A DNA stretch of 64,000 nt from Promethearchaeota archaeon (GCA_048938105.1 JBHLMN010000010.1:152937-216936); one strand, 5' to 3'; positions 36,323 through 62,877 are shown, counted from the first letter of the stretch. Notes: generated by a model from the letters alone, not told the origin. Translations and numbers: made by a program.

Positions 36323-36474
36323 AAGGTTATTATAGAAAAAATATATCTTTGAATTTAATTTTAGAATTAATTCTGAAAAATCCCATTAATTCTCTTTATT
36401 TTGATTGAGCCAGTGAATTCTATTTTGTGCTTTGGATAAATGGTTTTAATTTTTCAATAAAAGTTAAAGAACAG

Positions 36475-44520: not shown

Positions 44521-44791
44521 TCTCTAAAACACCCTCATTTCTCTCAATCCTATTTACTGAATTCTTGGTAAATTAATGAATTCATGCCCTTTGAAAATTA
44601 TAAGTTAAGCTATAATTATAAATTGATTTTATTACAATCTGGGAACACTTAACCTAGTAGTTTCCTTCATAATCCCCAGCGAAAATCCCTCCAGTTTTAT
44701 CCTCCAGTTTTATAGTGTTCTAACCTCTATATGAGATTCGATATACTTTTCATTGCGTTTCATAATGGGATTGAATCTTGATAAGGATTGG

Positions 44792-44871
44792 GAAAGTAGT
44801 AACATTGGATATGTTAGCAAAAATACGTATATTGATATGTATAATGTACTATAACGTTGGATATATCAATG
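44792..44871 (+). other. dif-like sites I (GAAAGTAGTAA-CATTGG-ATATGTTAGCA) and J (ATGTACTATAA-CGTTGG-ATATATCAATG) enclosing a 52-bp unit
   Basis: Unit 44803-44854 is 48/52 identical to 63762-63813. Confidence 0.7.
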
Positions 44872-44890
44872 AACTTATGTAAAAAGGAAA

Positions 44891-47290
44891 TCACTCAAAT
44901 TCCTTTAACACTTCATTAAGAATTTCTCTAGTATTTTCAATAATCATTTTCGAAGTGGCATTCTTTATGGCTTTTGCCATTAATCTATAGGATCCCGTGA
45001 CAGTGATTTTTATTTCAATAAAAACACCAATACCTGAATCTATATCTTCAAAACTTATCGTATAAAAAATCTCACCAGGAGCAGGAGTAACTTCGAATTT
45101 TGTAAAGCGATCGGTTCTTGGACCTATTTCAATGTTTGAAAACTCTCTTCCCTGAGCTACAGTAGTATGTTGTGCAATCGCATCATAGAACTTATTTGTT
45201 ATTTTTCCTAAATCAATTGGTTTTTCTTTTAATTCATATAGTAATTGCTTATCTTCAGGTTTTTGTTTTTCTTTACCACTTACTACAACCCTGACACGAC
45301 TGATATTCTGGATTCGTGTATAGGGAGTTTGAGAGTCGCCTTGCCTCTGCGAGATTACACGAACAGCCGGAAAGTATGTACCGCTCTTGGAGAAGGTATA
45401 AGTAGTCTTCACCTTAACTTTCTTCTTGGCTTTGATCCGCTCGCTAACTGGATAGTCGCCAGCGCCTTCAAAATCCCATTCCACACCAACAATCGAACCA
45501 GTATCCGGTGGTGTTTCGATGACTGCGGAAAATTTGACCTTCTTCCCGACTTTAACATCTGCGCGCTCGGCTCCGTTTACTGTAAGATTGACAACTGGTT
45601 GTATTCCCTTACGCTCCACAGCGGATGCTGGTACTTGTATTTGACCATCCACCACTTTATATGTTGTACTCGCGGGGGGTGCTACGCCTTTTTCAACCCA
45701 TGTACTCATGTCACGCAGTGCTTGTTGCAATATACCTCCAAAGTTGATGACCCGTGTGGTTATTACTGGTGGAGAGTCAAACTGCGTGACCACAGGTGGG
45801 GTATGCAGTGCACGATCAATGAACCAGAGTCGGTAGTTATCTTCGAACTGTTCTCCTAGTGCAGCTTTCACCTTCGACCGATACCAATCTGCCTGCCAGG
45901 CATAGGCGATTTCGTCCATTATACACTCTATTACAATCATCTTGCCTTTAAACTCACCAGTTTGGATTGAACCAGCGCCTCCGAATGCATAGCGGGGGCC
46001 TACAAGCTCAGCTCGTTGTGGATACAGAGGTTTACCATCAGTGTCTCGAAAGTAGTCATAAACGTAATATTCAGGTGGTGGAATCTGATGGCGATGATAA
46101 GTTTGGATAGCGAGATAGTTAGAGTTATCGATTAACACCTTATCGCCCACCTTGACCTTAGCTAGATCTTGATAATATTTCTCACCATAAGCAAGTATTA
46201 TCATGTCATCAAACGCTCCAATAATGTAAGCTACACAACCCTCTGCCTCACCGCTTTTCAAGAAGATTGAAGCTCCCTGGAGGTCACCTTCTGGTACACT
46301 TTCGAATTTAAAGCCTGCTGGAACAATTATGTTACCAGCTTGGCCAGCTGAAATCGACAATGAGCCACCCATTTTCCTGATGTCATCAGGCATAATTAGC
46401 TTACTTATAGTTGTTTCGTGCTTGATTCGAGCGTCTAAGAATGATTGGGGTGGATTTACACCAAAGTAGCCTTGTTCCTTCCAAAAATCTTCGAAATATG
46501 TGGGATCCCATTCGATTGTTTGGTCAAGGAGGGTGGTTAATACCCCTGTGTAGCCGAATGCTATCCTCTGATAATTAAACCAAGCCTGTGGCGGAAATCC
46601 CATCCGAGTCACTTCAGTAAGTGCTTCTCGTTCCTCTTCATTGAGACCAGCATACATGTCACCGCTACCACCAGGTTCTATCGCGTCAACGATGGTAGGC
46701 ATATTATCTTTTAACACACGCATCGCATGAGCCTGAATTGTAAAATTATTGAGCATACTCATTGGTGTTCCATGAATAAATGGCACCACGCCGTCCCAGA
46801 TACCGTCTGTGTTTTCTATACAGCTGATGGTTTTATATGCCCCTCCGCTGCCACCCCACGTATATCCATAAGGGCGGTGGGGGCCATACATTTCAGCAGC
46901 TAAAACACGTGAATACTTTGCTACTGCCGCACTGGTCCGATAACCGACAACGGTAGGATCATCCCCTGGGAACATATCCATCCTCCCTAGGTTTGATTCT
47001 ACAAAATAAGCACCACTCTCGAAGACAAAACTTAACGAGTAGCTAGGATTAGGGTAATCTGGAGCCTGTGCAAGATTTTCATTTCCAGATATTGGCATGA
47101 TATACTGGAAGAACCGATTTTCGTATTGCTCTTTTGGTGGAAAGTAGAACGAGAATCGAGCTTGGGTGCCTTTAAAACCACCATGAACATAACGATGGCG
47201 TACGGGCTTTTCCCGCCACTCATCAATATCTACATATGGTTGAGTGAAAAGTGGATCATCGCTTGGTCCAGTAGACTCACTTGTTTTCAA
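44891..47290 (-). CDS. Tannase-like alpha/beta hydrolase-related protein with PKD-like domain and AT-rich C-terminal extension
   Basis: YTWGGSGG nucleophile elbow; EWDFEG..TYTFSKSGTYFPAVRV PKD-like; higher GC than flanks. Confidence 0.65.
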   Translation of the reverse strand: MKTSESTGPSDDPLFTQPYVDIDEWREKPVRHRYVHGGFKGTQARFSFYFPPKEQYENRFFQYIMPISGNENLAQAPDYPNPSYSLSFVFESGAYFVESNLGRMDMFPGDDPTVVGYRTSAAVAKYSRVLAAEMYGPHRPYGYTWGGSGGAYKTISCIENTDGIWDGVVPFIHGTPMSMLNNFTIQAHAMRVLKDNMPTIVDAIEPGGSGDMYAGLNEEEREALTEVTRMGFPPQAWFNYQRIAFGYTGVLTTLLDQTIEWDPTYFEDFWKEQGYFGVNPPQSFLDARIKHETTISKLIMPDDIRKMGGSLSISAGQAGNIIVPAGFKFESVPEGDLQGASIFLKSGEAEGCVAYIIGAFDDMIILAYGEKYYQDLAKVKVGDKVLIDNSNYLAIQTYHRHQIPPPEYYVYDYFRDTDGKPLYPQRAELVGPRYAFGGAGSIQTGEFKGKMIVIECIMDEIAYAWQADWYRSKVKAALGEQFEDNYRLWFIDRALHTPPVVTQFDSPPVITTRVINFGGILQQALRDMSTWVEKGVAPPASTTYKVVDGQIQVPASAVERKGIQPVVNLTVNGAERADVKVGKKVKFSAVIETPPDTGSIVGVEWDFEGAGDYPVSERIKAKKKVKVKTTYTFSKSGTYFPAVRVISQRQGDSQTPYTRIQNISRVRVVVSGKEKQKPEDKQLLYELKEKPIDLGKITNKFYDAIAQHTTVAQGREFSNIEIGPRTDRFTKFEVTPAPGEIFYTISFEDIDSGIGVFIEIKITVTGSYRLMAKAIKNATSKMIIENTREILNEVLKEFE

Positions 47291-47733
47291 TATAATGCAC
47301 CAAATTTTGTTATAAATAGACTTTAAATTAATATTTTAAGTAATTCTTTTTCTAGTGTTAGTTCCTGTTTCTTTCAAGCTAATTCTGCTACCCAATAAAA
47401 ACATAAGGAATCTATCTTCACTGAATAGTTTGAAACATTCTAAATCTAAGTCCCATCCTTCCTCAGGAGCTCACTCAGCATTTTCAAAAAAATCCAAATA
47501 TTTTGGTATCATAGAGTCTTTGACATAATCGCAAAATTTTTCGTAAGGTTTCAGATCTAAAACAGGAGTGTTATCCATAGTGTCTAAGTTCTGGAGGGTG
47601 ACAATTCCGAAAAAATAATTCAAATCTATAGCCTTTTACAGTATTGGTTCCAAATTTTATTCTATCTAAACAATCCATCCTATTGAAGCTTCGGAACCAT
47701 TTATTAGATTCAGTGTTAGCTGTTGCACAACTG

Positions 47734-47810
47734 TGGGACTTTTCCCCTGTTTTCTCTTTTCTTTTTTGACCTGTCTTGATGATGTTTGATGTCGTATAGC
47801 GTTGGATAAT
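47734..47810 (+). repeat. Dispersed repeat copy 3 (truncated) ending in dif-like site K
   Basis: Near-identical to 35081-35156. Confidence 0.9.
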
Positions 47811-47816
47811 ACACAT
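47789..47816 (+). other. dif-like site K (attL of the integrative element): ATGTCGTATAG-CGTTGG-ATAATACACAT
   Basis: About 55 bp upstream of the RHH-recombinase operon. Confidence 0.75.
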
Positions 47817-47872
47817 TTATTATAGCAAAATTATATAAGCAGTTATATTATCTCTATTCTTAGTGAAATTGA

Positions 47873-48343
47873 GTGGCACCTAGAAAGGCAAAGAGTTCTA
47901 AATCTAAAAAAATGATTACTTTTATGTTAGATGAAGAAATAAGATTAAGGATTGACGAGTATTGTAAGAATAGTCAATTGAGTTTAGCCCAATTTATACG
48001 ATTAGCTATAATTGAGAAATTGGAAGGGAAAGTGATTGATAAAAGTGATCAAGTCGAGATAATTGATACTTCTAATATTGATCATGCTTTAACACAACTT
48101 CAACAAGAACAAACAAAGATTTCACAAATGCTAGAGTTCCTGATAGATCAACAACAAAAAGAAAATGCAACACAATCAAAGATAGTTATTGAAGCAAAGC
48201 AATTATTATTGGAAAAACAACCAACAACCTATGAAGAAGCTAATGAGTTCATTCCTGATATTAACACAATGAATGAAGCAATTAATCAACTTCTCCAAGA
48301 AAATAAAGTCATTTATAAAAGGAGTAAGCTTAATTGGCTTTAA
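47873..48343 (+). CDS. Ribbon-helix-helix (CopG-like) DNA-binding protein with coiled coil
   Basis: MITFMLDEE...IDEYC....SLAQFIRLAIIEKL. Confidence 0.75.
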   Translation: MAPRKAKSSKSKKMITFMLDEEIRLRIDEYCKNSQLSLAQFIRLAIIEKLEGKVIDKSDQVEIIDTSNIDHALTQLQQEQTKISQMLEFLIDQQQKENATQSKIVIEAKQLLLEKQPTTYEEANEFIPDINTMNEAINQLLQENKVIYKRSKLNWL

Positions 48344-49203
48344 CCACTTCCTCATCTTCAGACCAAATGATTGAAGATTTTATCCTCTCACAAAATTTAA
48401 GTGAAAACACAGTAAAAAGTTATAGAAGTTTACTTAATAATTTTTTTAGATATTTAAATGATAGAGAATTGACTAGAAAAGATGTTGCTATATTCGTTAA
48501 AAAGGAAAAACAAAAAGGATTAGCAGATGGAACAATAAAAGCAAAATTAACAGTAATACGATGTTACGCGAAATGGTTATGGGAAGAAGATTTACTTTTG
48601 AGTAAAGAATATAAGAAAATTTTAGGATTGAAAATTAAGTTAGATTATGGAGAAGATGGGAGGAGAGCATTAACAGAAGAAGAGATTGAATTAGGTTATA
48701 ATAAACTTGTAAATCCAATATTAAGAATGCTATTCTGGACTGGATTGAATTACGGACTAAGAAGAAGTGAATACATTAACTTAAAGATGGATGACATCGA
48801 CCTATTGAACAGGATTGTAACGATCAGGCATTCTAAGGGGAATAAAACTCGAAGAATCAAAATTCTCAAAACTCACGTCCCAGTTTGGAGAGATTGGTTT
48901 GTTACGAGAGATTCATATCAGTTAGATCATGATTTTGTGTTTTTTACAGATCGAGGGAGAGCTGGAACGCGAAGTATTGAACGGTATTTCAACAAAATCA
49001 GTGAAATTTTACTAGGAAATAAGGAAATTACAAGTCATACACTACGCTACACTTTTGCAGTCAGATGTTGGCGTTCTGAAATGGATTTATTAGTATTGAG
49101 TAAAATTTTGGGTCATTCTAATTTACGAACTACTCAAACTTACCTAAGGGTTATTGAACATGAGATTTTAGAAAAATATGAAGAGCAAGCATCGAGAATC
49201 TAA
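48334..49203 (+). CDS. XerC/D/XerA-like tyrosine recombinase
   Basis: LSENTVKSY N-domain; GLRRSE, KGNKTR, HTLRYTFA and LGHSNLRTTQTY catalytic motifs. Confidence 0.95.
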   Translation: MALTTSSSSDQMIEDFILSQNLSENTVKSYRSLLNNFFRYLNDRELTRKDVAIFVKKEKQKGLADGTIKAKLTVIRCYAKWLWEEDLLLSKEYKKILGLKIKLDYGEDGRRALTEEEIELGYNKLVNPILRMLFWTGLNYGLRRSEYINLKMDDIDLLNRIVTIRHSKGNKTRRIKILKTHVPVWRDWFVTRDSYQLDHDFVFFTDRGRAGTRSIERYFNKISEILLGNKEITSHTLRYTFAVRCWRSEMDLLVLSKILGHSNLRTTQTYLRVIEHEILEKYEEQASRI

Positions 49204-49281
49204 TTTATAACTAATAAGAGATCTTTAGATTTAATTCAACCATAAAGGTCGCTTATAAGGAACATCTGGATAATTTTCTTT

Positions 49282-50325
49282 TTACCTTAGATATAATTTC
49301 CTTCTTTCTTTGAGTTTGGCATAATGAAGTTTTCTATGGCAGTTTGGACAAATCACTAGTATGTTTTCTTGTGAATCATCATGCGAAATATTATAAGGTA
49401 TAATATGGTGAACCTCAGAATATAATTCATCATTTCTTTTGATAAAATGTCTTTTATCGCATATTTGACAATTTTGATACTTCTTTTTCAATAAAGAGAA
49501 CAGATTTACTGATCTTTGATACTCAATTTTCGTTCTTTCCTTCCTAATCCGCATTCGTGGCTTAAATTTTTTCATTTTTTCATTCTCTTGAAGAATTAAT
49601 TTATTTAGTTCTTCAATAGAGTATTTAATGTCAGTTTCCTCTACCTCACGATAAATTTCGGGTATTTTTAATCGTTCTAAAGGATATTGATACAATTCCA
49701 AAATGAAAACATATACTAATCTAATATTTCCATCTTTATCTGGTTGTTGAGAAGTATAGAAATCGTTAAATCCCATTTGACCCATAAATTCCCATTTCCC
49801 CCCTTCGTTATGCTTTTTGAATAAGAAAATTAATTTTCCTGACTGTTTAGATTCATAGATTGCTTTATTTCCTTTTGTTAAGGATTGATTCCCAGCTTGT
49901 CCCTCTCCTGTACAATGAAAATTTCCTGTTTCATCAAAATGATCAATGTATATTGTTTCCGCTTTTGGTTTAACACATATAACAATGTGACCATTTGGGT
50001 GGTATTTTGGGGAAGTAGAAACACGGATCCCTCCTTGTGGAGATACTTTCATTAAATTATGAATCTCATCATTAAGATAAAATTTCCCGATAATTGGTAC
50101 TGAATTATTTTTCTTTGTTTTATTTACAAATTTTGTTTTCTTACATTTAAAACATTTTCTTTCATCGCGATAGATGTCTTTCATATCAAATAGATCATGG
50201 CATATTTTGTTTATCTGCTGTCGTGGTTTTATAAAAAGTATTGTGGATAGGCAGTCATCACAATAGTATTCTTGTGTAATCCTTAGATAATTCAAAACTA
50301 TTTCTCTGTTATTCAATTTAATCAT
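49282..50325 (-). CDS. SRA-like plus HNH endonuclease (McrA-like, probably modification-dependent)
   Basis: QGGIR..YIDH..TGEGQ.G.Q..GNKAI; CQIC..EVHHIIP..N...ICPNCHRKLH; N-terminal CDDC domain. Confidence 0.8.
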   Translation of the reverse strand: MIKLNNREIVLNYLRITQEYYCDDCLSTILFIKPRQQINKICHDLFDMKDIYRDERKCFKCKKTKFVNKTKKNNSVPIIGKFYLNDEIHNLMKVSPQGGIRVSTSPKYHPNGHIVICVKPKAETIYIDHFDETGNFHCTGEGQAGNQSLTKGNKAIYESKQSGKLIFLFKKHNEGGKWEFMGQMGFNDFYTSQQPDKDGNIRLVYVFILELYQYPLERLKIPEIYREVEETDIKYSIEELNKLILQENEKMKKFKPRMRIRKERTKIEYQRSVNLFSLLKKKYQNCQICDKRHFIKRNDELYSEVHHIIPYNISHDDSQENILVICPNCHRKLHYAKLKERRKLYLR

Positions 50326-50460
50326 CTCTATATATTTACATTCTACTTTTATGAATCTTCAGGATCTATTTAATTACCTAAAGTAAGCCCATAAATTATA
50401 AAGGATTGAACTTTTTTCTTTCCAGTAATAATGGAAAAATGTCATTTCAAAAAACTTCAC

Positions 50461-50537
50461 TGAGATTAATGTGAGAAACTAGTGAGAAGTGTATGAAAAA
50501 GATATGAGAATGATGTGAGAATGTTATGAGTGAGAAG
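50461..50537. repeat. Iteron-like TGAGA repeats with exact 11-bp period
   Basis: Cores at 50461, 50472, 50483, 50494, 50505, 50516 and 50527. Confidence 0.7.
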
Positions 50538-50596
50538 GTTTAATAGATAATATTGAGATTATTTCTCACTCATCTTAAGATGGTTAAGACTCTTTT

Positions 50597-51019
50597 CTAA
50601 AACCTTTTTTCTTCTGATTTGTAAATCATTATCGCAATAAAAACTATAAGACCATACGTAGTCAAGAAATAAAGGGGACTAAGGGTTAAAAAACTAATAA
50701 TGTCTCTTGCATTTGAAACTCCAAGAGTTTCCAAAGCTAGTACTCCAAAACTCGATAATAACCAACCAACAAAAATCGGGAGAAGAAGAATAATCCCTGC
50801 TGTAAAGAGCTTCAATAGAATATCAGAGTATTCACTCATAGAATCTAATATACCCGTATTCTGCGTTTTATCTAGGATAAATATTATAGCTGTTATCCCT
50901 CCTCCTATAATAACAATTAATAAGATTAAACTTACAATATTACTGACGAAATTCAAAATATTTTCTAAAAATAGAGTCGGACTAACTAATACTGCCAAGA
51001 GAATTAATAAAACAATCAT
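50597..51019 (-). CDS. Small hypothetical membrane protein
   Basis: About 4 hydrophobic helices. Confidence 0.6.
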   Translation of the reverse strand: MIVLLILLAVLVSPTLFLENILNFVSNIVSLILLIVIIGGGITAIIFILDKTQNTGILDSMSEYSDILLKLFTAGIILLLPIFVGWLLSSFGVLALETLGVSNARDIISFLTLSPLYFLTTYGLIVFIAIMIYKSEEKRF

Positions 51020-51298
51020 TTCTTGAATACTTAGTTCTTCTCGTTTGCTCAGAATGAAACCCTCCTCTTTGTGGAGATATTCATATGACCTAATACTTTC
51101 TTCTATAAATAGTTTTACACGTACTCAATTATAATTAACTAATTAGAACGTTGTTGTAACTTACTTTTTCCCAAAAAGGACATCTAGTATTTGGGGAGAA
51201 TAAACATTTCTTAAGTGATCATCAAAATCGTCACTTGTTTTTCGCTTGAAATTTAGCTATAAAATCTTTCAGAAGTTCTAACAGCACAAATTGATTCT

Positions 51299-52288
51299 TT
51301 ACCTAATATTTTTTGGCTTTCTGGGGTTATTATTTATGTTTCCTTCAATGAGTTGTGTTTTCTGGTGATTTTCAAATAAATCAGGAAAATATATTTTTAA
51401 TTTCTGGAATTTGTTTCTAATAAACTTTCGTTGGCGCTCTGAATTTTTGTCTGATTGTGATAGGGTATTGAAGTTATCATCACTCTCTTCAAAATCACTA
51501 ATTTGTGTTCCTTTCCGTAGTACTTCAGAATCCGTTCTTTTTTGCATTAATTTACGGAAAGATTTAGCTCTATGAATATTCTTGTTAATTTGTGCTCCTT
51601 GCTTTGAGATATCGAATCCTGATTCCATTACTAGTTCAAACTTCTTCTTCAGGACTTTTTCTGTGAGTTCTTGCTCTGTTGTCTTTTGATCTCTCCTATA
51701 TCCAATTCTAGGGGAAATACCTCGATAAACTGAAAACACGGATTCATCAATATCTTTCTCTGTATGCAACCCTTTTATGTACCAGTATCCAGTTTGTCTT
51801 AGTTTTTTATTGGGAAGAATACCGAACATACCCGGTCCCAATATTCCACGAGAGAAAATTCCTACTCTTTCAAGTATATGAATTACTGAATAGATTTTTA
51901 CTTTCAATCTTGCTTTTTCTTCAGGACTGGCTGGTGCAAGTGTATGTAAGAGTGTGAAAACTGTAAATGGTTCAAGACACATTAGATCGAGTATTTCTAT
52001 TAACTCGGATAATTCTCTAGTACGCTTCATATGAATATTCAGTTTTTTTAATCCCTTTAGAATGTTAGAATAATTAGTAAATTGTATCTTTTCAATTCTT
52101 TCAGGATTACCTATAATCTTACTAAGCTTATTTGCAATATCATTAATAATGTATTCTTTCATTTCATCTGGTAAGTTCAATAAGAGAGGAAATCGATTAA
52201 TTAGGAGCTTTTCAGTCTCATCCCTAAAACTACTACTACTATTACTACTAGTAGAGCTATTTTGCATTACGAGGTCATTTCCTTTCAT
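51299..52288 (-). CDS. Hypothetical protein with central winged-helix-like segment (possible replication or DNA-binding protein)
   Basis: PFTVFTLL..KIYSVIHILERVGIF pattern. Confidence 0.5.
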   Translation of the reverse strand: MKGNDLVMQNSSTSSNSSSSFRDETEKLLINRFPLLLNLPDEMKEYIINDIANKLSKIIGNPERIEKIQFTNYSNILKGLKKLNIHMKRTRELSELIEILDLMCLEPFTVFTLLHTLAPASPEEKARLKVKIYSVIHILERVGIFSRGILGPGMFGILPNKKLRQTGYWYIKGLHTEKDIDESVFSVYRGISPRIGYRRDQKTTEQELTEKVLKKKFELVMESGFDISKQGAQINKNIHRAKSFRKLMQKRTDSEVLRKGTQISDFEESDDNFNTLSQSDKNSERQRKFIRNKFQKLKIYFPDLFENHQKTQLIEGNINNNPRKPKNIR

Positions 52289-52433
52289 TAAGATTGTTAT
52301 TTTCTTCTAACTTTTCGACCCTATTCTTAATTTGATTAATTTCTATGCGTATTAGATCATTGAATTTTTGTTGAAATTTAAAGAAATTTTTGATTAGTCG
52401 GTTTTCGATGTTTCTCGAATAAATCTTATTCAT
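52275..52433 (-). CDS. Small coiled-coil protein (52 aa, not in the ORF track)
   Basis: MNKIYSRNIENRLIK...INQIKNRVEKLEE..; fills the operon gap and overlaps the next start. Confidence 0.45.
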   Translation of the reverse strand: MNKIYSRNIENRLIKNFFKFQQKFNDLIRIEINQIKNRVEKLEENNNLNERK

Positions 52434-52474
52434 AATTCATTGTTCCTTGATTTGTTAAGGTGATCAAAAGATCT

Positions 52475-52867
52475 TTATTTAATTTTATCAGTTTCAGGTG
52501 TCCTTTCTCCATCTGCATTCTTGGGTAGTGCTTCTGCAGCTTTACAGAATGCGATCCTCTCATCCCATGCTTGTTTAAAAGATAGACTTAATTCCTCATT
52601 TGTAACGTTGTTATAACCTTGAAACTTTTTCTCAACTATTTCTGAAGCTCTTTTTCCAACCCAGCGACGATCTTCGACGAATGAGCGTCCACTTTCCTGA
52701 AAACAATTTAATGTTAGTTCTGTTGGAGGATCAAAAAGCGTTTTCAATTCACTATAGGGATTTGAAGGTTCGATTTGATAGGTAGATGATAAGGAAGCCT
52801 TTTTAAGTCCTTTAATATGTGTTTTCTCCTTAATTTCATTCTTTTTTTTATCATTCAAATGTATCAC
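52475..52867 (-). CDS. Hypothetical protein
   Basis: 130 aa ORF with GTG start in AGGTG context. Confidence 0.6.
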   Translation of the reverse strand: MIHLNDKKKNEIKEKTHIKGLKKASLSSTYQIEPSNPYSELKTLFDPPTELTLNCFQESGRSFVEDRRWVGKRASEIVEKKFQGYNNVTNEELSLSFKQAWDERIAFCKAAEALPKNADGERTPETDKIK

Positions 52868-52930
52868 CTATTTAATGCCTTAATAATTAGATATATATAC
52901 TCCTATTGATCATTCGGGATTAATTTTCAA

Positions 52931-52955
52931 TTCCGAATTATTCGGAAGTTCCGAA
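52931..52955. promoter_or_regulatory. Overlapping palindromes TTCCGAAT-T-ATTCGGAA-G-TTCCGAA between divergent genes (putative operator)
   Basis: Three alternating TTCCGAA half-sites. Confidence 0.55.
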
Positions 52956-52990
52956 GTTATAATTTTCAAACTGTTGGAATTGGTAAGATA

Positions 52991-53779
52991 ATGGTAATTA
53001 ATTTAACAAAAATCTTTAAAACTAAACGAAAAGGTAAGAGTAGCTATATTCCGTCTATTGAAGTTATCACAGCGATTTTAGGTAACTGTTGGCGTTCAGA
53101 ATGCAGTAATGTAGATATAGTTAATTACATGAAAAAGAAAAATCTAAAAGGACACTCATCAGGCAATATTTCTGAAGCTTTAAGTTATCTGGATAATTCT
53201 GTAGAAGGAGCAGGAATTATTATAAGTAAAAGAGGCTGGGGAAGAAAAAGAACGAATACTATTGACTTTCATGCTATTTTAGATTATATTTTTAGCTATT
53301 TAGTATCATTCTCTCAAGATGAAGAGACAAAGAAGCAGAAAAAATATCTTTTAGATTTAGTAAAGAGAAAAAGGAAAAGGACTGGTGAAATGTTTCTTTC
53401 AATGTTTTCAAATAAAGGAGTTCTCGAATATTTTAATTGGAAAAAAATTTTTATGATATGTCCAGAAATTATGCTCTATTTGATTCTTGTAAGTGATTTA
53501 TCCTCAATGATGAATAGCTATCAAAAAGATTCGAGAGAAAATGATGAATTAACTCAAGAAAGAATATTTGAAATCCAACAAGAATGGCTAAATAAGTATT
53601 TACAAGGAAAAAAAGAATATAATAATGAAATAGAAGCACCAAAGGATGAGTCTTTTTACAGCGCTCTAATGCGTTCATTTGAAGCTAAAATAGTTACAAA
53701 TTACGAAAAAAGGCATAAAGATATTAGAATTGCCTTTTCAGCGATAAAAGGGGTAAGAGAAAACATCATAATTTTTTAA
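52991..53779 (+). CDS. Putative winged-helix regulator
   Basis: SNVDIV..SSGNISEALSYL..GIIISKRGWGRKR. Confidence 0.55.
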   Translation: MVINLTKIFKTKRKGKSSYIPSIEVITAILGNCWRSECSNVDIVNYMKKKNLKGHSSGNISEALSYLDNSVEGAGIIISKRGWGRKRTNTIDFHAILDYIFSYLVSFSQDEETKKQKKYLLDLVKRKRKRTGEMFLSMFSNKGVLEYFNWKKIFMICPEIMLYLILVSDLSSMMNSYQKDSRENDELTQERIFEIQQEWLNKYLQGKKEYNNEIEAPKDESFYSALMRSFEAKIVTNYEKRHKDIRIAFSAIKGVRENIIIF

Positions 53780-53985
53780 ACAAGAGAACAGAAAGAGAGA
53801 ATCATCACACAAGTATTTGTTGTATCATTATCAATTTTCTTGATAATTAGTTTAAAATACAATTTTCATTAAATGAGTTCTTTTATAAAGTTAAATGTCT
53901 TAACTCATTGGAGCAATGAATATAGAACAGGGAGAAAGAAAAAAGGTATAGGGATTCTTTTTAAAAATACAAAAGGGAAATTCAA

Positions 53986-55149
53986 ATGTGGTTTATGAGA
54001 ATTTCAATTATTGCTTATCCTGATACGCTAGGGGTGGATCTAACAAGTCTATTCACAGGGAAAAAAATAAAAACAGATCCTAAGAAGCAAATAGATATAA
54101 TAAATACGACACAAAAAGTAACTGTTGAGAACAGTAAGATAGAGCTTACATTTTTGAATTTAATTTTGAAAGACGGTTTTCTTGGTTTTCGGAAGTCAGT
54201 AATCAACATTGAAACAAAAATCCAAGCGATATTAAATATTATGAAAAAGCAACAAAAAACAGAATCCTTGATCTCTATTGGGAAAGAAATATGTAGGCTA
54301 ATTGAAGACGAGAAAAAGAAAGACATTTTGGACATTTCACCCTCACTCTTATTGGGAATCTATGCTCATGAGATGCTTGAAAGCACGAGAAAAGGTAAAT
54401 TCAATTCTGATATGATAAATAGGATGAAAGAAATTAAGAGTGACATTGATGACCTATTGAAATTAAAAAATGAGCAGACAAGTGTATATCAAAGCAACGG
54501 TGGGATTGTTGCTTTTAATACAAACAAACGAAATTCTTTCGTTTATGCACAAAAATTTGTAACTGAATATTTGCAATACAGGCAAAATCAGAATCTGATA
54601 ATTATCGGATTTAAAGACGAGGAGAGAGAAATAACAACAGAAGAGGGTGAATCATTTGCTAATACTGTGGGAATACCTTATATTGAGATGTTAAATAATG
54701 AAAAACCTGTTATTAATAAAATAATTCGTGATTTAATAATAAATTTTATCAGTTCTGTTACAAGACCACACGAACCTAGTATTGATTTAACCTCACCAAA
54801 GCGAGAAAAAAAGAAAGAAAAATCAAAGGAATGTCTAACTATAATTAAAAATCACTCTAAGGAGTTACTAGATCTATTAGGAAGTTTAGAGGAACATCCT
54901 GAAAACACACCACTTTTTATTTTGTGTAATCAAATCTCTTCTTTCAGTACTGCTCTGCTAAAGCAATATAATATCATGAGAATGACGATCGTTCCAATTA
55001 TGCATTTATGTGTACAAAGAATGACAAAGATAGTAAATATTGATTCATTTTCCTCTGAAATTATTAATCAGATAGATGTAATTAAGAGTAATCTTGAAGA
55101 GCTAAGTAAGCGAATCAGTGCTGAATTTAAACCAGATTATCCAAAATAA
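53986..55149 (+). CDS. Degenerate Rab-like GTPase split by a helical insertion
   Basis: N-half ISIIAYPDTLGVDLT..KVTVENSKIELTFLNL; C-half GGIVAF..RNSF..LIIIG..REITTEEGESFANTVGIPYIEM. Confidence 0.65.
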   Translation: MWFMRISIIAYPDTLGVDLTSLFTGKKIKTDPKKQIDIINTTQKVTVENSKIELTFLNLILKDGFLGFRKSVINIETKIQAILNIMKKQQKTESLISIGKEICRLIEDEKKKDILDISPSLLLGIYAHEMLESTRKGKFNSDMINRMKEIKSDIDDLLKLKNEQTSVYQSNGGIVAFNTNKRNSFVYAQKFVTEYLQYRQNQNLIIIGFKDEEREITTEEGESFANTVGIPYIEMLNNEKPVINKIIRDLIINFISSVTRPHEPSIDLTSPKREKKKEKSKECLTIIKNHSKELLDLLGSLEEHPENTPLFILCNQISSFSTALLKQYNIMRMTIVPIMHLCVQRMTKIVNIDSFSSEIINQIDVIKSNLEELSKRISAEFKPDYPK

Positions 55150-55173
55150 GCGATTGAAAAAGAAAACACAATT

Positions 55174-55735
55174 TTCTTTGGATGTAGATAAAATGTCAAA
55201 TAATTACTGTCAAGAAATTGAAAAAGAAGCAAAAAAACTGGTAGAAATAGCAACTACCATTAAAGATCCCTCAAACTCTTATCAAAAGGAATTAGAACAT
55301 GTAAAAAGTCTTGGGGAATCAATAATTCGAATTTGTAATTGGAATACAGACCCAGAAAAGCAAAAGGAGTTTAAAATGATGCAAGGATTAATGGATGTTT
55401 TTAAAAATCCTGATAAGAAAAACGCTGGAATCAAAATGAAGAATATTTTTGAGGAGTTTGAAGGAAAATCGATTAATGACGAAGAACTTGCAGAAATCGA
55501 AGATCAGTTGCAAATACTTGAAGGTATTTCAATTCCTGAAAATAGTCCAGTTTTTACAGGTGCACAAACGGGTAAACCTGTAGAACAAGCAGAAAGTATC
55601 CTAGATGAACTCATGAAGTTTTCAAAAATTATGATCCATTTGCCTGAAGTTCAAAACATCATTATAAAAATAGATAAATTGGCAGAAAACTGGTATAACT
55701 CTGAAAAACCAGATGATAAGATTATTAGGCTTTAA
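55174..55735 (+). CDS. Hypothetical helical protein (ATG at 55174 assumed)
   Basis: ORF co-oriented within the element. Confidence 0.6.
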
Positions 55736-55803
55736 GACATCCGAATTTTACGAATTATTAATGATTATTCTTAATACTGCTATTTAAAAAATGAAAAAAG
55801 GGG

Positions 55804-58800
55804 ATGATTATTGTTTTGACAACCTCTCAATTATTAGAGGGAATAACTGATGCAGGAAAATTTGAGTTACTTGCATCTGATATTTTGCGTTATAAATATC
55901 CAGAACTCGAAGGTTTAATACATATTGGAGTAACAACTTCAGGTAGAACCAGAAGATCACCCTTAGATGGATTTTTGAAGATTCCATATTCCGAACCACC
56001 CCATTACGCGTTGATTCAACACACCACAGTTGATTTGGTCTCATTAAAAGAAAAATGGATTGACGATCTAGAAAAAGCACATAAAATAAGTTTAACAATA
56101 CAGGAAGAAAATGCTGTTTTTACAATTTATTTAACTTCTAACAAGATCATTAATGACGAGATATGTAAAAAAATATACCAAAGAGCCAGCGAACTTGCTT
56201 TAGCGCCAATTTTAATCGAAAATACAATTATCTCAGCTTTTTTAGATAATGATGAAAATGGACAATGGCTTAGAAAAAAATATTTCGGTGTTATTGATGA
56301 GAAACTATCTAAAAACCGCTTCACGAAATTATGTCAAGAAAGTTTGGAGAGATATGAACATAACTTATTTGAGTGCAAAGTAGAATCATTGATAGATAGA
56401 GAGATTGAAACCACTTTAATAAGAAAGATAAAAACTAATAAAAAGTCAATTTTTTTTATTGTAGGAGAATCAGGATACGGTAAATCATCAATTGCATATA
56501 AAACACTAGTAAATCTCAAAAATAGCGATTTTACACTTTGGTTTCCACCAGAAATAATCAATAATAACTATTCATTGCAAGATTCTCTATCTGATTGGTT
56601 CAAACAGCTTTATCCATATATCGAATCTAAATCAGGAGAACAAGCTGTAAGGAATGTGAATGTTACTGAAAAGAATTTAGTGATTGTAATTGACGATATT
56701 AATAGAACAAATAATCCAGTAAATATTTTGGATAAAATTATTAGATGGTTAAAAAGTAAAGAGGAAAAATCCTTTAGCTCTAATATAAAATTTATAATCC
56801 CCTTATGGCCGCAAATTTTTAGGCAAATAAAAACTAAAATCGAAAGATTACACTTTATTGACTCATTATTTCTAGATAGATATTCTTTAGATGAGGCTAA
56901 AACTGTATTGTTAAACGGATTAAAACATATGGAACATTCTCATACTATCGTTGAAATTGAATCCTTTGTGAAGAACTTAGGACTTGATCCTTTCTTAATT
57001 GGATTATTCCTTGAAAATCTAGATTTCAATAGAGGTTTAATAACCGTAGAACCTCACGATATTATTTATTCGTTCATTAATAGATGTATTCAGGAATTAG
57101 GCAGCCAATTCATGGATTATTACCAAATACTCTTTGAGTTGTCATCAAAAATGATTTTGGAGAATAATCATTATCCGTCTTGGAACTATATTACTAAATG
57201 GTTTGATAACCAGAATAAACTTGTAGCATTAAAGGATCTGGTTAATCAGGGAAAAATTTGCAGAACTGACGAATTATTTCATTTGCATTTTCGCCACGAT
57301 CGTTTAAAAGATTATTTCATGGTGGAAAATTTTAAACATTATATAAAGAGTAATGATGATGAATTTGATGAATTATTTTTCGATCCTTTTTATGCACCCC
57401 TAGTAGCAAAGGCTATCTTGTTCAGGTATCTTTCTAATGGTTTTCTTAAAAAAATCCAACATTCATCACCATTGATACTTTTCGAATGTTTGAAGATTAT
57501 TAAACCTCCCGATACGACACTCGCTAATCAGATTGTAAAAAATATAAACGATTGGATCAAAGTAAGCAATATAAAAAACAATTTGGATGATCCACCTAAT
57601 TGGGAAGTTTACCATTCGTTCGCTTGGTTGTTAGCTGAGACAGATTCTCCATTCGTTTTAGATATAACTGATGACTTGCCTCATTATTCAAATATTGCTT
57701 TAGCAAGATTAAGGAATGGTTCTATAGATAGTGGTATTCGTTATTGTTCAAGAGATGGAGCAGAAATTTTGCGAGTGAATGATCCTCAAAGAGATAAAAT
57801 CTTAAAACATGCTTTGATGAGATATAAAGATAAAATTATTGAGGATTTAAGAAATATTTTGGAAAATCCTTCTGATTTTAAAACCGAGTATATTAGAGGG
57901 GCTCTTTTCATTATCGGCCAACTTAGACTATATGAACTTGAACATGATTTATCAAATTTTTGGGATTTAGTTCAAAATAAAGCGGAATTACTTTCATTGA
58001 TGCTTTGGGCTACAATGAGATGCTGTAAATCCTCAATAAATGTAATTATGGAGGAATTGATTGACTTTTGGCTAACATTACCAGATGAAGGAGAAAATTC
58101 AATTAAACAAGTTTCCTCAGAGATTGAATTTGGTCTAAAGAAAAAAATAAATCCTATTGCCCTGAATATATTAATTGAGAAAGCAAATGCACATGAAAAA
58201 TTGAAATGGCCGGTCTCTTATCTTCTAAGAGGTGTAGATAACCGTAGTGCTCTTGAATTTGTAATAAAGGAAGCTTCAGAAATCAAAAAATCTCTTGAAG
58301 GTACTGACAAATTTTCTGTTTGGTTGAATAGAATTGACGATGAGTGGAATCCAAGACTTCATAGATCAAGAAAAATGTCTAAAGATTCAGTAGATTTCTT
58401 ACGATCCTTATGGGAGGATGACCTGAATGACAAATACATAAGGACAATCTCTTTTCAATTATGGTTACATAGTTTAAATCAGGATGATCTTGATTTTCTT
58501 AAAGAAGTTCAAAATGAAAAGCTTTTCTTTAATTTGGCTCTCTATAAAAGGGTTGGGCTTGGTGATTTATCCTGCATATATGAATATTGCAATAAATTAA
58601 GAACAAAGCCTTATTGGGTACATATGGCTTATAAAATCTGGAGTAATCCAATTATTAAAGAAATAATTCATATAATTAATTCTGACGAATTTGTTTCAGA
58701 TAGCCCGAATTATAAAAAGGATAGTTTTTTTTGGGATTTAGCAGAAGTATTAACAAAAATTCCTACATACAAAGCTGATATATTTATTGTTGAAAATTGG

Positions 58801-59448
58801 GACGATTTAAAATCAAACTATAAAATTATACAAGCTGCACTATATGTAGGTACTGAAAAATGTCTAAAGTTGGCTAAACAAGCAATTATAAATTTAAAAG
58901 ATCGCGACAGTATATTCAAGTATATTTCATCCCTTTTTGGGTGTAACACATTAGGAAAACGTGAATACTTAACATTAGAAAAAATGAAAAACCTAATTCC
59001 GTACTTAAATCATATTCCTCCTAACGAACTTGGGTATTTTGGGCAACATTGTCAAAAAATAGGTGAGGTTGAATGGAGTAAGATGTATCTCTACGAACGG
59101 ATGGATCCATTATATAAGAAGACCTTACATCCGACAAATGATCAACTATATTCCGAAATTGAGAGCATTTTAAAACTTGATGACATTTTTGGCCGCACAT
59201 ATTTTTGGGTAGAGCGATTTGATGAGAGAAAAGATACTAAAGAAAGGCTTTTAGGATTATTATCCCAATTACTAGATAAAAGTCCTTCATATAAATCCGC
59301 TGAATTTGTTTCTATTTGTTTGAAGCTAAAAGGTGAAAGGAGAGATCTAAATATCTTAGATCATGAATTTCCAGAGGAAATCTCTTATAAAATAAAAAGA
59401 TTAAAGGAAGCGACAAGATTCAGGATATATAGAAGAACCCTAATGTAA
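55804..59448 (+). CDS. STAND/NACHT-like NTPase with N-terminal REase-like domain and helical C-terminus (Avs-like defence protein)
   Basis: FELLA..SPLDG N-terminus; Walker A GESGYGKS; Walker B VIVIDD; FRHDRLKDYF. Confidence 0.75.
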   Translation: MIIVLTTSQLLEGITDAGKFELLASDILRYKYPELEGLIHIGVTTSGRTRRSPLDGFLKIPYSEPPHYALIQHTTVDLVSLKEKWIDDLEKAHKISLTIQEENAVFTIYLTSNKIINDEICKKIYQRASELALAPILIENTIISAFLDNDENGQWLRKKYFGVIDEKLSKNRFTKLCQESLERYEHNLFECKVESLIDREIETTLIRKIKTNKKSIFFIVGESGYGKSSIAYKTLVNLKNSDFTLWFPPEIINNNYSLQDSLSDWFKQLYPYIESKSGEQAVRNVNVTEKNLVIVIDDINRTNNPVNILDKIIRWLKSKEEKSFSSNIKFIIPLWPQIFRQIKTKIERLHFIDSLFLDRYSLDEAKTVLLNGLKHMEHSHTIVEIESFVKNLGLDPFLIGLFLENLDFNRGLITVEPHDIIYSFINRCIQELGSQFMDYYQILFELSSKMILENNHYPSWNYITKWFDNQNKLVALKDLVNQGKICRTDELFHLHFRHDRLKDYFMVENFKHYIKSNDDEFDELFFDPFYAPLVAKAILFRYLSNGFLKKIQHSSPLILFECLKIIKPPDTTLANQIVKNINDWIKVSNIKNNLDDPPNWEVYHSFAWLLAETDSPFVLDITDDLPHYSNIALARLRNGSIDSGIRYCSRDGAEILRVNDPQRDKILKHALMRYKDKIIEDLRNILENPSDFKTEYIRGALFIIGQLRLYELEHDLSNFWDLVQNKAELLSLMLWATMRCCKSSINVIMEELIDFWLTLPDEGENSIKQVSSEIEFGLKKKINPIALNILIEKANAHEKLKWPVSYLLRGVDNRSALEFVIKEASEIKKSLEGTDKFSVWLNRIDDEWNPRLHRSRKMSKDSVDFLRSLWEDDLNDKYIRTISFQLWLHSLNQDDLDFLKEVQNEKLFFNLALYKRVGLGDLSCIYEYCNKLRTKPYWVHMAYKIWSNPIIKEIIHIINSDEFVSDSPNYKKDSFFWDLAEVLTKIPTYKADIFIVENWDDLKSNYKIIQAALYVGTEKCLKLAKQAIINLKDRDSIFKYISSLFGCNTLGKREYLTLEKMKNLIPYLNHIPPNELGYFGQHCQKIGEVEWSKMYLYERMDPLYKKTLHPTNDQLYSEIESILKLDDIFGRTYFWVERFDERKDTKERLLGLLSQLLDKSPSYKSAEFVSICLKLKGERRDLNILDHEFPEEISYKIKRLKEATRFRIYRRTLM

Positions 59449-59974
59449 TAGAATGTGGTTAACAACCTTATTGGCGAAAAAGTCATAAACATCTGTTAAA
59501 TGGCTATTTTATGCCAAAGACGGAAAAATGTCTTCAATGTCCAGAAACTGAGACTATTCTACAATGTTTTTCCTTCTTTCTCATATTAAAGATAGGAAAA
59601 AATCATAAAGCATATCTCAAAGAAAAACAGAGTATACAAGAATGATAAATCCTTTCACAACCCAATTTTTTTAGTCTCATATAATTCGGAAGAACAAAAT
59701 TGAGATTTAAAACAGTCAAATTTCAAAATCAGTTATCGCAAGAAAATTCCATAATGATTTCACCTAAAATTAGGAATGAGAAATAGTTCCTATAAAAAAA
59801 GATTTTAGAGACAAAGAAAATAACACCATAGACGTACTTGATACAACAATAGGGGAGTTTAATGCCATTCTATAAATTTAGATTTAAATTCCTAAAATAG
59901 TATATTATAGGAATATTTTTTATAATAGTGGGATATTCTAATATTTCATTTTAAACCAATCAGAGGGAAAATTT

Positions 59975-60853
59975 TTGACTAAGGATCAAATATTGAATGA
60001 CGTTCTTGAATATTGGAAAGAACAACGAGAACAAATTATCAGTAAATCGAAAGAAGTTATGAAAGGAGATCTACAGACACTCAAGGGAACACATCGAGAA
60101 TTAATAATAGAAGATTTTTTTAGAAAATTTTTTCCAAAACGATTTGATTATGGTAATGGTTACATTATTGATTCTGAATTAAACAAAAGTAATCAATCTG
60201 ATGTAGTTATCTATGACGCAGAGAACCATCCTATAATTCCATTAAGAAATTATAACTACTTTTTTGCTGAGTCAGTGAATTTTGTTTTCGAAATTAAAAG
60301 TTATCATAACAAAGAAGAACTCGAAAAAGTTATTGAAGGAACAAAAAAAATTAATCAATTAAAACCTCATTTAAAACCTAATTTCGATTTATATAAGAAA
60401 TCAATTGAAACAAGGTTTTTAAACATAGAGAAAAGATTGATTTATCATACTAACAGCATGGACGACCCCACAGAATTTTCTAAATCAGTTTTAAACACCG
60501 ATGAGCTAATACCACTTGCTTTTCCAAATCCTATATTAACTGGTGCTATTTTCCTAAAAACTCAAAAGAAATTTGATCTTGAGGAAGCGCTAAATGAGCA
60601 AGGAATACAAAGTATCCATAAAGAGTGGCCAAACCTTATGGTATGGCTTGAAGAGGGGATTGTATGCCTGAAGTATTTAGGGAGGATCACAATCTTTGAA
60701 CCTAAGGAATATTGTTTATTTCTAGTTTTTATAATAACTATTTCACTGTTACAAGAATTAATCGGTGATACTGAGAGAAAAGACATATACCCAATTTATA
60801 CTTGGGGTCAAAAATTCAAACCTATTCATAGTAGGTCATATGACTGGAAATAA
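59975..60853 (+). CDS. PD-(D/E)xK nuclease-fold protein (DUF6602-like)
   Basis: G..RE..I..F....P......G.IID....SNQSDVVIYD...AESV...EIKS. Confidence 0.75.
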   Translation: MTKDQILNDVLEYWKEQREQIISKSKEVMKGDLQTLKGTHRELIIEDFFRKFFPKRFDYGNGYIIDSELNKSNQSDVVIYDAENHPIIPLRNYNYFFAESVNFVFEIKSYHNKEELEKVIEGTKKINQLKPHLKPNFDLYKKSIETRFLNIEKRLIYHTNSMDDPTEFSKSVLNTDELIPLAFPNPILTGAIFLKTQKKFDLEEALNEQGIQSIHKEWPNLMVWLEEGIVCLKYLGRITIFEPKEYCLFLVFIITISLLQELIGDTERKDIYPIYTWGQKFKPIHSRSYDWK

Positions 60854-60914
60854 TCTAGAAAAGTGGGTTAAAAAGTCCACTAATTTGTTATCTTACATAT
60901 TTTTTATATAATAG

Positions 60915-60942
60915 ATGTGCAATATCGTTGGATATATCCCAG
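60915..60942 (+). other. dif-like site L (attR): ATGTGCAATAT-CGTTGG-ATATATCCCAG
   Basis: Left arm is 9/11 inverse of the site K right arm; right flank ATATATC...GAACTT shared with site J. Confidence 0.7.
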
Positions 60943-61023
60943 AACTTGGGTATTGTTGATGTATGATATCGCACGAACCTTTGTATAGTATTTAGCAATT
61001 AAGAATAAGGGAAAAAATTTCCC

Positions 61024-61971
61024 TTATTGCCTATAGATCCAATGTTTAGCCCCTTGCTCTTCACTTATATTAAAACCGATTTTCTTATAGAATTCAAATG
61101 CTGGATTGTTAAGTACTATACTTCCCACCATTTCTTTTGCTTTTTGTTTGGTGAAATAATCCTTGGCTCCTTGTATCATTGCCTTTCGAAGACTTACTCC
61201 ATCTGGAAATTCTTGATCCACGACCATCCCCCCAAAATTACCATACACCGTGGTGTCTTTTTGTCCTCTATCTGCGGGTGAATGTGTTCCAACATGTATG
61301 TATCCCTTTAAATCTCCTTTCCAGTAGACGAGGAAAGAATCTTCTGATGACATCTCTCCGTTATCAAATCTCTCTGTAAGATTCTCAACCGTAATTTCTT
61401 CGCCTACAATACTTTCCTTGGATTTACGGTAGGTCACCAACGTTGAAAAATCATCTTTTGTTAATGGTTTGATTTCAAAATCCGACGATATCTCAAAATT
61501 AATTTCGTTAATCGGAAGACGCATCTCACGAGCTTCTTGAACTTCCACCACCTTTGCTATTGTCTGACTTTCGAAATACTCATGAGCTTTCTTGAAATCA
61601 TACGCGTAGTGGGATTCGATCGTTCCTGGATTTTTTTTGCTATCTTCTTTAGCAAATTCATAGATTGCTTTGAACAGTCGATCCAATGTTTCTTTCGATC
61701 GGTATTCCTTTAAAATTATAGGGTAGAAAATGCCGTGGAAGCCGCCATGAATCCGACATTCAGTATACCCCACAATCTGTTGATCTTGAGTTACTAGATA
61801 TTGAACTTGCTTTGGATTAAAATTTGGTTCTTCGTGACGTTTCCGAACTTTTTCTGCTGTAATTAGTTCAGGTTCTGGTATCATTTCTACAATTACTGTG
61901 TTGAATATTTCTGCCTGGGCTTCTTCATCCCCTTTTTCATAACTACGTATAGTTAAACTTTCTTGGACCAT
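61024..61971 (-). CDS. Tandem GNAT acetyltransferase
   Basis: TIRSYEKGD; IVGY; N.PAFEFYKKIGF. Confidence 0.8.
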   Translation of the reverse strand: MVQESLTIRSYEKGDEEAQAEIFNTVIVEMIPEPELITAEKVRKRHEEPNFNPKQVQYLVTQDQQIVGYTECRIHGGFHGIFYPIILKEYRSKETLDRLFKAIYEFAKEDSKKNPGTIESHYAYDFKKAHEYFESQTIAKVVEVQEAREMRLPINEINFEISSDFEIKPLTKDDFSTLVTYRKSKESIVGEEITVENLTERFDNGEMSSEDSFLVYWKGDLKGYIHVGTHSPADRGQKDTTVYGNFGGMVVDQEFPDGVSLRKAMIQGAKDYFTKQKAKEMVGSIVLNNPAFEFYKKIGFNISEEQGAKHWIYRQ

Positions 61972-62175
61972 TTTTATTCTTTCCTTATTCTTTGAATTAT
62001 TTGGATTTCTTGTTTAAATGATCATTCCATTTATAATGGAATTATTCAGTTATATATTGAATGATTCAATAAGAATTTTATTCATTCAAAAGGTATTTAA
62101 TCTTTACTATTCTGGCATAATATACAATTCAAACCCCGTACAGGCATTTCACACTATTCTTGTGACGAGATTACA

Positions 62176-62877
62176 ATGGATGAAAAACGAGAAATATTAT
62201 ACAGTTTTTGGGAATCTCTTCCTCCACTGAAGATTATTTCGAGACCAGAAGAAGAGGTTTACGGTCACAAAGTGCGATTACATATTATTCAAATATTACG
62301 TAAAGGAATTTTAGATCGATTAGATAACAGTAGAAGGCGTAGGGCGTTAAACGCGAGAGAAATATTATCTATTCTAAAGGAGATGCAAACAGAGGAGGAC
62401 AAAGACGAAGAAGAAGCCCCAAAAGCTAAAGATATCAGCTTACAAAGTCTATACTTTCATTTACAGAAACTAGAAGAAGCTGAATTAATACAGACTGTTA
62501 CTATTTTACGGAAAGGAAGTCATAACACAGCCTACTATGGCAGAACAGCACGAATCTTTCTTCACACTGATCTTGTAAAACATGAACAAAAGATCTCTCG
62601 GGCTTTTACAGCAATTAAACAATTTGTCAAAGTAAAAAATCCAGATTTAAATGTAGAAAAACTCGATAATTTTCGTCAGAGGTATCTTACTCATGAAAAA
62701 CAGAGAAGTGAAAGAATCTCCAAATGGTTTATCCAATATGAATCCCTGATTGTAGAGAACAATATTGATCTGACCTCATTTTTCAAATTTATGGAAATTA
62801 TCGACACTATTAATCCTGAAAATATTCAAATCCTCAAGGAATTGCAAGAAACTTTAAAATTTGAATCATTACCATGA
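62176..62877 (+). CDS. ArsR-like winged-helix regulator
   Basis: H.VRL.IIQIL; SLQSLYFHLQKLEEAELI; YYGRTAR. Confidence 0.85.
   Translation: MDEKREILYSFWESLPPLKIISRPEEEVYGHKVRLHIIQILRKGILDRLDNSRRRRALNAREILSILKEMQTEEDKDEEEAPKAKDISLQSLYFHLQKLEEAELIQTVTILRKGSHNTAYYGRTARIFLHTDLVKHEQKISRAFTAIKQFVKVKNPDLNVEKLDNFRQRYLTHEKQRSERISKWFIQYESLIVENNIDLTSFFKFMEIIDTINPENIQILKELQETLKFESLP

Follow-up and report, generated by a model that had tools for sequence, protein, structure and literature searches.

A 13-kb element with its own Xer-like recombinase, probably a site-specific integrative element, in a cassette array of an Asgard archaeon

INTRODUCTION

In Streptococcus thermophilus, the integrase-bearing integrative and conjugative elements ICESt1 and ICESt3 have accreted in tandem with cis-mobilizable elements that lack an integrase and are flanked by attachment (att) sites. 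Here we analyze a similar arrangement in a 64-kb stretch of DNA (the window) from a Promethearchaeota archaeon. A 13-kb element, which encodes its own Xer-like tyrosine recombinase (integrase) and a ribbon-helix-helix (RHH) protein, lies there in a row of att-bounded, integrase-less blocks with the same core. It differs from ICESt1 and ICESt3 in that no conjugation genes are found and in that its sites are short Xer-type palindromes instead of the 3' end of a gene. A further difference is that the arrays exist in most genomes of the genus without this integrase.

Integrative mobile elements exploiting Xer (IMEXs), such as CTXphi, TLCphi, VGJphi and the gonococcal genetic island, have no recombinase of their own and exploit that of the host (PMC5357621). 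The window element resembles them in its 28-bp Xer-type attP (two 11-bp arms around a 6-bp spacer, or 11-6-11), its dif-like target, and a tandem pile-up in which each insertion regenerates a usable site. However, it has its own recombinase with an RHH partner, its target belongs to a multi-copy site family of dif-like architecture found at many loci, and its host is archaeal. No archaeal IMEX case is given in PMC5357621 or PMC8371274, and the latter, a review of archaeal recombinases, does not mention IMEXs. Because it encodes its own intact Xer-like recombinase, the element falls outside the IMEX definition, and the label 'IMEX-like', applied in an earlier reading of the sequence alone (the original prediction), finds no support in that form.

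In archaea, XerA acts at dif to resolve chromosome dimers (PMC2958812). The window integrase shares the recombinase fold and the site architecture with this system but scores below the XerA cut-off, falls in a separate clade, and is carried on a mobile, strain-variable block. Papers on Asgard mobile genetic elements describe tRNA-integrating aloposons and elements with an 11-bp att, and not the module reported here (PMC8813620, PMC11529989). Yucahu-i of Atabeyarchaeia is a 10.9-kb Asgard element with a tyrosine integrase as its first gene, an 11-bp att motif and a superfamily 3 helicase, and it has been observed as a circle (PMC11529989). Like Yucahu-i, the window element has an Asgard host, a size in the 11-13 kb range, an integrase at one end, a short repeated att, and presence or absence within populations. 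In contrast, the Yucahu-i att motif is unlike 11-6-11, and neither a replication gene nor a circle was found for the window element. Aloposons of Heimdallarchaeum use tRNA genes as integration targets, and their content includes a ParA-like gene and giant genes in tandem (3,000-6,000 aa) (PMC8813620). They too are cargo-carrying mobile elements of Heimdall-group Asgard archaea, but the window shows no tRNA target, giant genes or ParA-like gene, which rules out this assignment. An SSV- or pNOB8-type element is likewise ruled out, as there is no tRNA gene in the window and the int gene is not split.

The element behaves as a classical integrative element with a minimal Xer-type att site, placed in an array in the manner of an IMEX pile-up. 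Few Asgard mobile elements have been defined to the base; for this one, attL, attR, attB and attP are exact. Its mobility module (site, flanks, RHH gene and integrase gene) appears portable and is recognizable in relatives that carry different cargo. With this module, recombination in Hodarchaeales-type genomes can be tested on a concrete system, and it can serve as a marker for finding more such islands, here with defence-type genes.

RESULTS AND DISCUSSION

Two dif-like sites bound the element

The window forms the end of contig C56 (its final 64 kb); the genome, G000, has 5.85 Mb in 65 contigs and 35.1% GC. A TFIIB-type factor is encoded within it, and the host is therefore an archaeon. Where named, relatives of the integrase carry the labels Hodarchaeales, Hodarchaeota or Hermodarchaeota, which makes a Hodarchaeales-type Asgard host probable. 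We consider it likely that bases 47800-60925 (13,126 bp) are a site-specific integrative element, moved by its own Xer-like recombinase and belonging to a small Asgard family. The terminal features are as follows.

47789-47816, + strand: attL (site K), with a left arm of the genus-wide type, spacer CGTTGG and an element-side right arm
47817-47841, + strand: left subterminal flank, conserved in relatives L005, L006, L007, L044 and L045, with a palindromic TATA-like box
60895-60914, + strand: right subterminal flank, conserved, with near-identical 20 nt in relatives L010 and L045
60915-60942, + strand: attR (site L), with an element-side left arm, spacer CGTTGG and a right arm from neighbouring array DNA

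Sites K (ATGTCGTATAG-CGTTGG-ATAATACACAT) and L (ATGTGCAATAT-CGTTGG-ATATATCCCAG) are each 28 bp long, of 11-6-11 form, and co-oriented. They share a 9-bp core, CGTTGGATA, around the 6-bp centre CGTTGG. Joining the ends of the element rebuilds an attP, ATGTGCAATAT-CGTTGG-ATAATACACAT, of dif-like form (11-bp arms, 6-bp spacer), which has a contiguous counterpart in L045. Its arms are symmetric at 9/11 positions, in agreement with the original prediction, and by direct reading the symmetry reaches 16/21 further outward. The left-flank motif lies at a 29-nt offset from the site start and recurs at that offset in the five relatives listed; this flank is probably the promoter of the RHH-integrase operon and/or a site for an accessory protein. 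On the right, the L010 relative has its near-identical 20 nt ahead of the right-end site, and L045 has them ahead of the centre site. GC content is 0.28-0.32 over 48-61 kb, compared to 0.34-0.45 just outside and 0.351 for the whole genome.

Occupied and empty sites in public sequencing runs

Public sequencing runs were mapped to positions 44500-62500 at a 90% likeness threshold. Three are informative: the source run (X1), a mangrove metagenome from a different study (X2), and a sister sample of the source (X3). A contig of X2 joins 47799 directly to 60926, skipping 13,126 bases, and nine letters (CGTTGGATA) fit both sides. This join is the empty site (attB), exactly as the original prediction had specified it. 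Run X2 also contains 200-base pieces identical to the element, and hence occupied and empty states may coexist there. In X1, one 13,399-base contig covers 47776-61174 at a depth of 15.7, close to the 17 of an identical left-flank contig; extra depth from other strains falls on the flanks only. In X3, the left flank is covered at 14-57 and the right flank at 6-20, with the element at 0.27 or less. From this pattern of depths and joints, the element is single-copy, integrated and strain-specific. The locus thus combines terminal direct repeats, an integrase near one end, an empty site and deviant composition, the features by which integrative elements and genomic islands are recognized.

Searches of G000 gave no other copy of the element and no spacer-like match to it. 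A second X2 joint (44950 to 60344) was rejected as spurious, with a side of 21 letters and 12 foreign letters between. No assembled empty site was found in the species representatives of the genus, and the 30-nt right flank is unmatched in the 20 genomes. The GNAT gene on the right of the element has orthologues at up to 93% identity; their similarity ends ∼50 bp short of the site, and no site is found there. The sole raw-read run, X10, was sampled at ∼1% and placed 0 reads on 44500-62500.

The RHH-integrase operon

The original prediction had placed an operon of an RHH gene and a recombinase gene ∼55 bp after site K, and the measured distance is 56 nt.

47873-48343, + strand: RHH-domain protein, 156 aa (NikA-like/RHH, E 7e-5; homologues 50-61% identical)
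48334-49203, + strand: Xer-like tyrosine recombinase (integrase), 289 aa (PF00589, 1.7e-26; SAM-like N-domain)

The two open reading frames (ORFs) overlap by 10 nt, and the integrase gene, which is intact, begins 518 nt inside attL. Its product scores 93.4 bits against PF00589 (Phage_integrase; Pfam cut-off 27.1). The predicted tyrosine-recombinase catalytic set is intact, with R143, K168/K171, H235, R238, H261 and Y270 invariant across 11 aligned family sequences. The nearest solved structures are those of archaeal XerA from Thermoplasma and Pyrococcus (E 4e-21). On XerA and XerC models the integrase reaches 119-122 bits, well short of the cut-off of either, and on the XerA model NF040815 its 119.3 bits lie below the cut-off of 220. 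In a phylogeny against archaeal XerA, for which the original prediction had called, the element family (including in-genus members at 33-42% identity) splits from the XerA clade of the genus with support of 99/99. The integrase is thus neither an archaeal XerA, the single chromosomal resolvase, nor the host XerA, which is encoded on C14. An integron is also ruled out: the score on the integron-integrase model TIGR02249 is 64 bits against a cut-off of 265, and the gene is internal to the 13-kb unit instead of heading the array.

Only three tyrosine-recombinase genes are found in G000, namely the element integrase, a bona fide xerA on C14 (282.9 bits) and a broken gene on C45 (95-979; L003), in which one TAG interrupts the reading frame.

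Given that both the gene overlap and the co-occurrence are conserved, the RHH protein and the integrase are likely to be a functional pair. A predicted complex of the two gave an interface score (ipSAE) of 0.48, compared to 0.00 for the best of three controls; runs share at least 93% of contacts, and the partner's predicted local distance difference test (pLDDT) score is at least 78. The mark applied is passed by 58 of 80 solved complexes and by 2 of 110 mismatched pairs, but marks at ipSAE ≤0.60 include only 7 of the 80 solved complexes and both mismatches. The prediction hints at physical contact. Probably the RHH protein acts on the conserved flanks as a regulator and/or directionality factor.

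A small family of related elements

About 15 proteins in public data, at 47-73% identity, are related to the integrase. By these comparisons, the element belongs to a small, previously undescribed family, found only in assemblies labelled Hodarchaeales or Hermodarchaeota. A search of the integrase against genome_contigs returned one distant Bacillota match only. In all contexts fetched, a gene for an RHH protein of ∼150 aa (50-61% identical) overlaps the integrase start, and a 28-bp site lies upstream of the RHH gene at a constant offset before the conserved TATA-like-box motif. The closest relatives share the RHH and integrase genes and no others. The original prediction had allowed that boundaries in relatives might map elsewhere, for example to a tRNA; in the one relative with both ends assembled they map instead to the 28-bp site of the operon-bearing module, and no tRNA gene was found in a search of the whole 64-kb window.

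One relative, on contig 27 of GCA_054389935.1 (L005/L010), is ∼12,953 bp long with both ends assembled. It has the spacer GACTAA in both attL and attR and subterminal flanks like those of the window element, and its rebuilt chromosomal site (attB) is a 10/11 palindrome. A second relative, from a Hermodarchaeota-labelled assembly (L045:2447-5611), has a right-type flank, a 28-bp centre and a left-type flank in one contiguous stretch, as in the rebuilt attP. A genome of the same genus (G012) encodes a 70% identical integrase at a site with the spacer TTATGG and other inner arms, and also has CGTTGG sites. In one assembly with two nearly identical integrases, the element-side arms are alike in 10/11 positions. 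The G012 spacer and these matching arms indicate that the site follows the integrase, not the host.

In GCA_048886445.1, two nearly identical integrases (L006:8881 and L044:245) lie at sites that have the element-side arm in common but differ in spacer and chromosome-side arm. This pair gives a hint that unlike spacers are tolerated or that retargeting is rapid; no right end could be assigned to the L044 element. A truncated integrase copy of 216 aa with no RHH gene (L011:10001-10651), in a 151-kb Hodarchaeales contig, is probably a decayed element, and a GNAT/HTH pair is the only part that L011 has in common with the window.

A model for movement

The mobility module would consist of the 28-bp Xer-type site, ∼20 bp of conserved flank on each side, and the overlapping RHH-recombinase operon. 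In the free circle, the ends of the element would unite as attP. The recombinase would then bind four arms, two in attP and two in a chromosomal site whose spacer is the same. Strand exchange at the edges of CGTTGG would yield the hybrid attL and attR. Here, the target would have been a cassette-cassette junction of a pre-existing array. The RHH protein could act as a regulator and/or accessory (directionality) factor on the flanks, and everything outside the module would be exchangeable cargo. Both the circular intermediate and the assignment of the chemistry to the element recombinase, rather than to host XerA, are our inferences from the arrangement of sites and genes.

Cargo genes, and whether the element replicates

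In this copy the cargo appears to be mostly nuclease and NTPase genes of anti-virus defence type.

49282-50325, - strand: HNH endonuclease like type IV methyl-directed restriction enzymes (PF01844, 2.5e-8; PADLOC mREase_IV, 8e-12)
50461-50572: TGAGA-core repeats at ∼11-bp spacing in a non-coding gap, iteron- or operator-like
52475-53779: divergent gene pair without a family, 130 aa (- strand) and 262 aa (+ strand)
53986-59448, + strand: Ras-like GTPase (387 aa), a 205-aa protein and a STAND NTPase (1214 aa) (Ras, 5e-8; nSTAND3, 1.3e-5)
59975-60853, + strand: DUF6602/NucC-like PD-(D/E)xK nuclease (PF20247, 1e-21; PADLOC PD_DExK, 1.7e-27, and NucC, 1.7e-16)

The genes at 53986-59448 are co-directional, with overlapping GTPase and 205-aa ORFs, and may form a defence-type cluster.

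The element might also be an autonomous replicon, an integrated plasmid or virus-like element in which the 130-, 140-, 262- and 329-aa ORFs and the phased TGAGA repeats make up a replication/partition module. Such a reading adds to the integrative element proposed above and is compatible with it, though we think it rather unlikely. In its favour, the non-coding gap holds six or seven TGAGA-core repeats plus one inverted copy, phased at 11 bp. In addition, another element of the wider family has kept the 130/262-aa pair, with homologues on G017:C244 (45% and 37% identical) that adjoin an integrase of 37% identity. These are the only genes besides RHH-integrase that are common to another such element. 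The pair has very few relatives anywhere: for the 262-aa ORF, seven proteins, itself included, were found at E ≤ 0.001 among 1.8 billion representatives, and its single-sequence fold has a pLDDT of 36. On the other hand, Pfam, PHROGs, NCBIfam and PADLOC gave no Rep, primase, helicase or ParA/B family, and none for capsid, terminase, conjugation (relaxase or type IV secretion system), replication or partition; five ORFs of the element remain without any family match, a loose Pfam search being empty as well, and the Atlas returned no usable match for the 329-aa ORF. Depth in the source run equals that of the chromosome, and the closest relatives have no genes in common beyond the operon. The earlier observation that capsid and conjugation genes are not recognizable was therefore upheld, whereas the description 'plasmid-like' found no backing in replication genes or depth (15.7 versus 17).

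The arrays and the recombinases that could act on them

In the window, co-oriented sites lie at 35135, 36295, 41096, 42501 (weak), 44844, 47789, 60915 and 63751. A loose site pattern finds seven co-oriented copies, compared to 0.18 expected, and 0/100 shuffles reach seven. The junctions of the array are simple 28-bp sites, and the element sits between two sites of the array. In the genus, 17/20 genomes have the chromosome-side arm with the CGTTGG spacer, a combination scarcely seen elsewhere. A cassette end of 25 nt, made up of the spacer, the arm and 8 nt, is almost invariant in 16/20, with up to 11 copies per genome and one chance match in reversed-pattern controls; the right end of the 13-kb element, when inverted, differs little from it. 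The cassettes of other arrays carry ordinary cargo (an ABC transporter, a ferredoxin and an EutA-like protein) but lack a recombinase. Among the genus genomes with sites, only one was found to encode a close homologue of the integrase (at least 60% identity). In G001 and G014 (94-95% complete), XerA is the sole detectable tyrosine recombinase, yet same-core sites are present. The arrays as a whole are independent of this integrase.

The element bears on how the unusual, genus-wide arrays of same-core, integrase-less cassettes come about. The original prediction had suggested that the element's recombinase may mobilize the other cassettes in trans. Since most of the 17 genomes with core sites lack this integrase, the idea is unsupported, and we regard it as doubtful. 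A broader proposal is that the RHH and Xer-like elements and the integrase-less cassettes form one system, in which visiting integrases, alone or mixed with host XerA on two arm types, build, shuffle and mobilize arrays at dif-like sites. Were it true, it would amount to a Xer-derived analogue of integrons or of accretion-mobilization in an archaeal lineage labelled closest to eukaryotes; on present evidence we judge it unlikely.

Same-core sites in genomes without the integrase also mean that host XerA could act on them, and perhaps on the element too. The element would then be a true IMEX, integrated and excised by the XerA of C14 at a dif-like site, its own recombinase serving, for example, to resolve circle multimers at the site beside the recombinase gene, as in large plasmids. 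The 11-6-11 architecture is indeed that described for archaeal XerA (PMC8371274, PMC2958812), plasmid recombinases usually adjoin their site (PMC5357621), and the genus-wide frequencies of arm and cassette end, like the sites in XerA-only G001 and G014, fit this scenario. However, the site is multi-copy, at several loci per genome, unlike the single-copy dif. Within the same genus, moreover, the site of the 70% identical G012 integrase shares neither the spacer nor the inner arms, and element-side arms track integrase relatedness. We accordingly give the host-XerA scenario little credence.

A dead genomic island, either a strain-variable block that inserted once and is now immobile or one that comes and goes through homologous recombination of the repeated flanks of the array, would fit the single genomic copy and the lack of a visible circle junction but is very improbable, as the ORFs of the module are all intact with an invariant catalytic set, the join falls within the 9-bp core and not in long repeats, and run X2 holds both element-identical pieces and the empty site.

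Most likely, then, the integrase moves its own element; its gene occupies a fixed position beside the site in all relatives. Several observations weigh against this conclusion. Genus genomes without the integrase abound in sites of this architecture and core. Support for the empty site is a single X2 contig of depth 3.15, with a shorter side of 46 letters, at the 90% likeness threshold. Both ends are assembled on a contig for a single relative. In L045, a bona fide xerA (286 bits) lies 0.9 kb past the integrase gene, and for this reason the contig may be chromosomal rather than a free element. Finally, no attP circle junction was seen in the contigs of the mapped runs, which cannot show rare forms.

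Further sites and flanks in the host genome

More co-oriented CGTTGG sites are present in G000 at C53:221997-233061, C61:194649-206454, C63:109413-116472 and C9:96829-100418, with others at C37:104132 and on C3, C7 and C30. Several of these arrays, among them those of C53 and C61, end contigs, as does that of the window; arrays are therefore probable break points of the assembly, and those seen may belong to larger ones. At many sites, a pyrimidine-rich flank lies ahead of the chromosome-side arm: examples are 35016-35151, 36176-36311 and 47734-47810 in the window, C3:7441, C37:104132 and C61:204607 elsewhere in G000, L007:9025-9054, and L047 (- strand) near 15560-15620. Sites next to related integrases in two other genomes of the genus are among those with such a flank. 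An ORF at 34794-35135, whose product is of low complexity, ends exactly at the first array site. The unit that starts at site B (36295-36350) opens with a motif resembling the left end of the 13-kb element but offset by 4 nt, and has no integrase; it may be the remnant of a related element.

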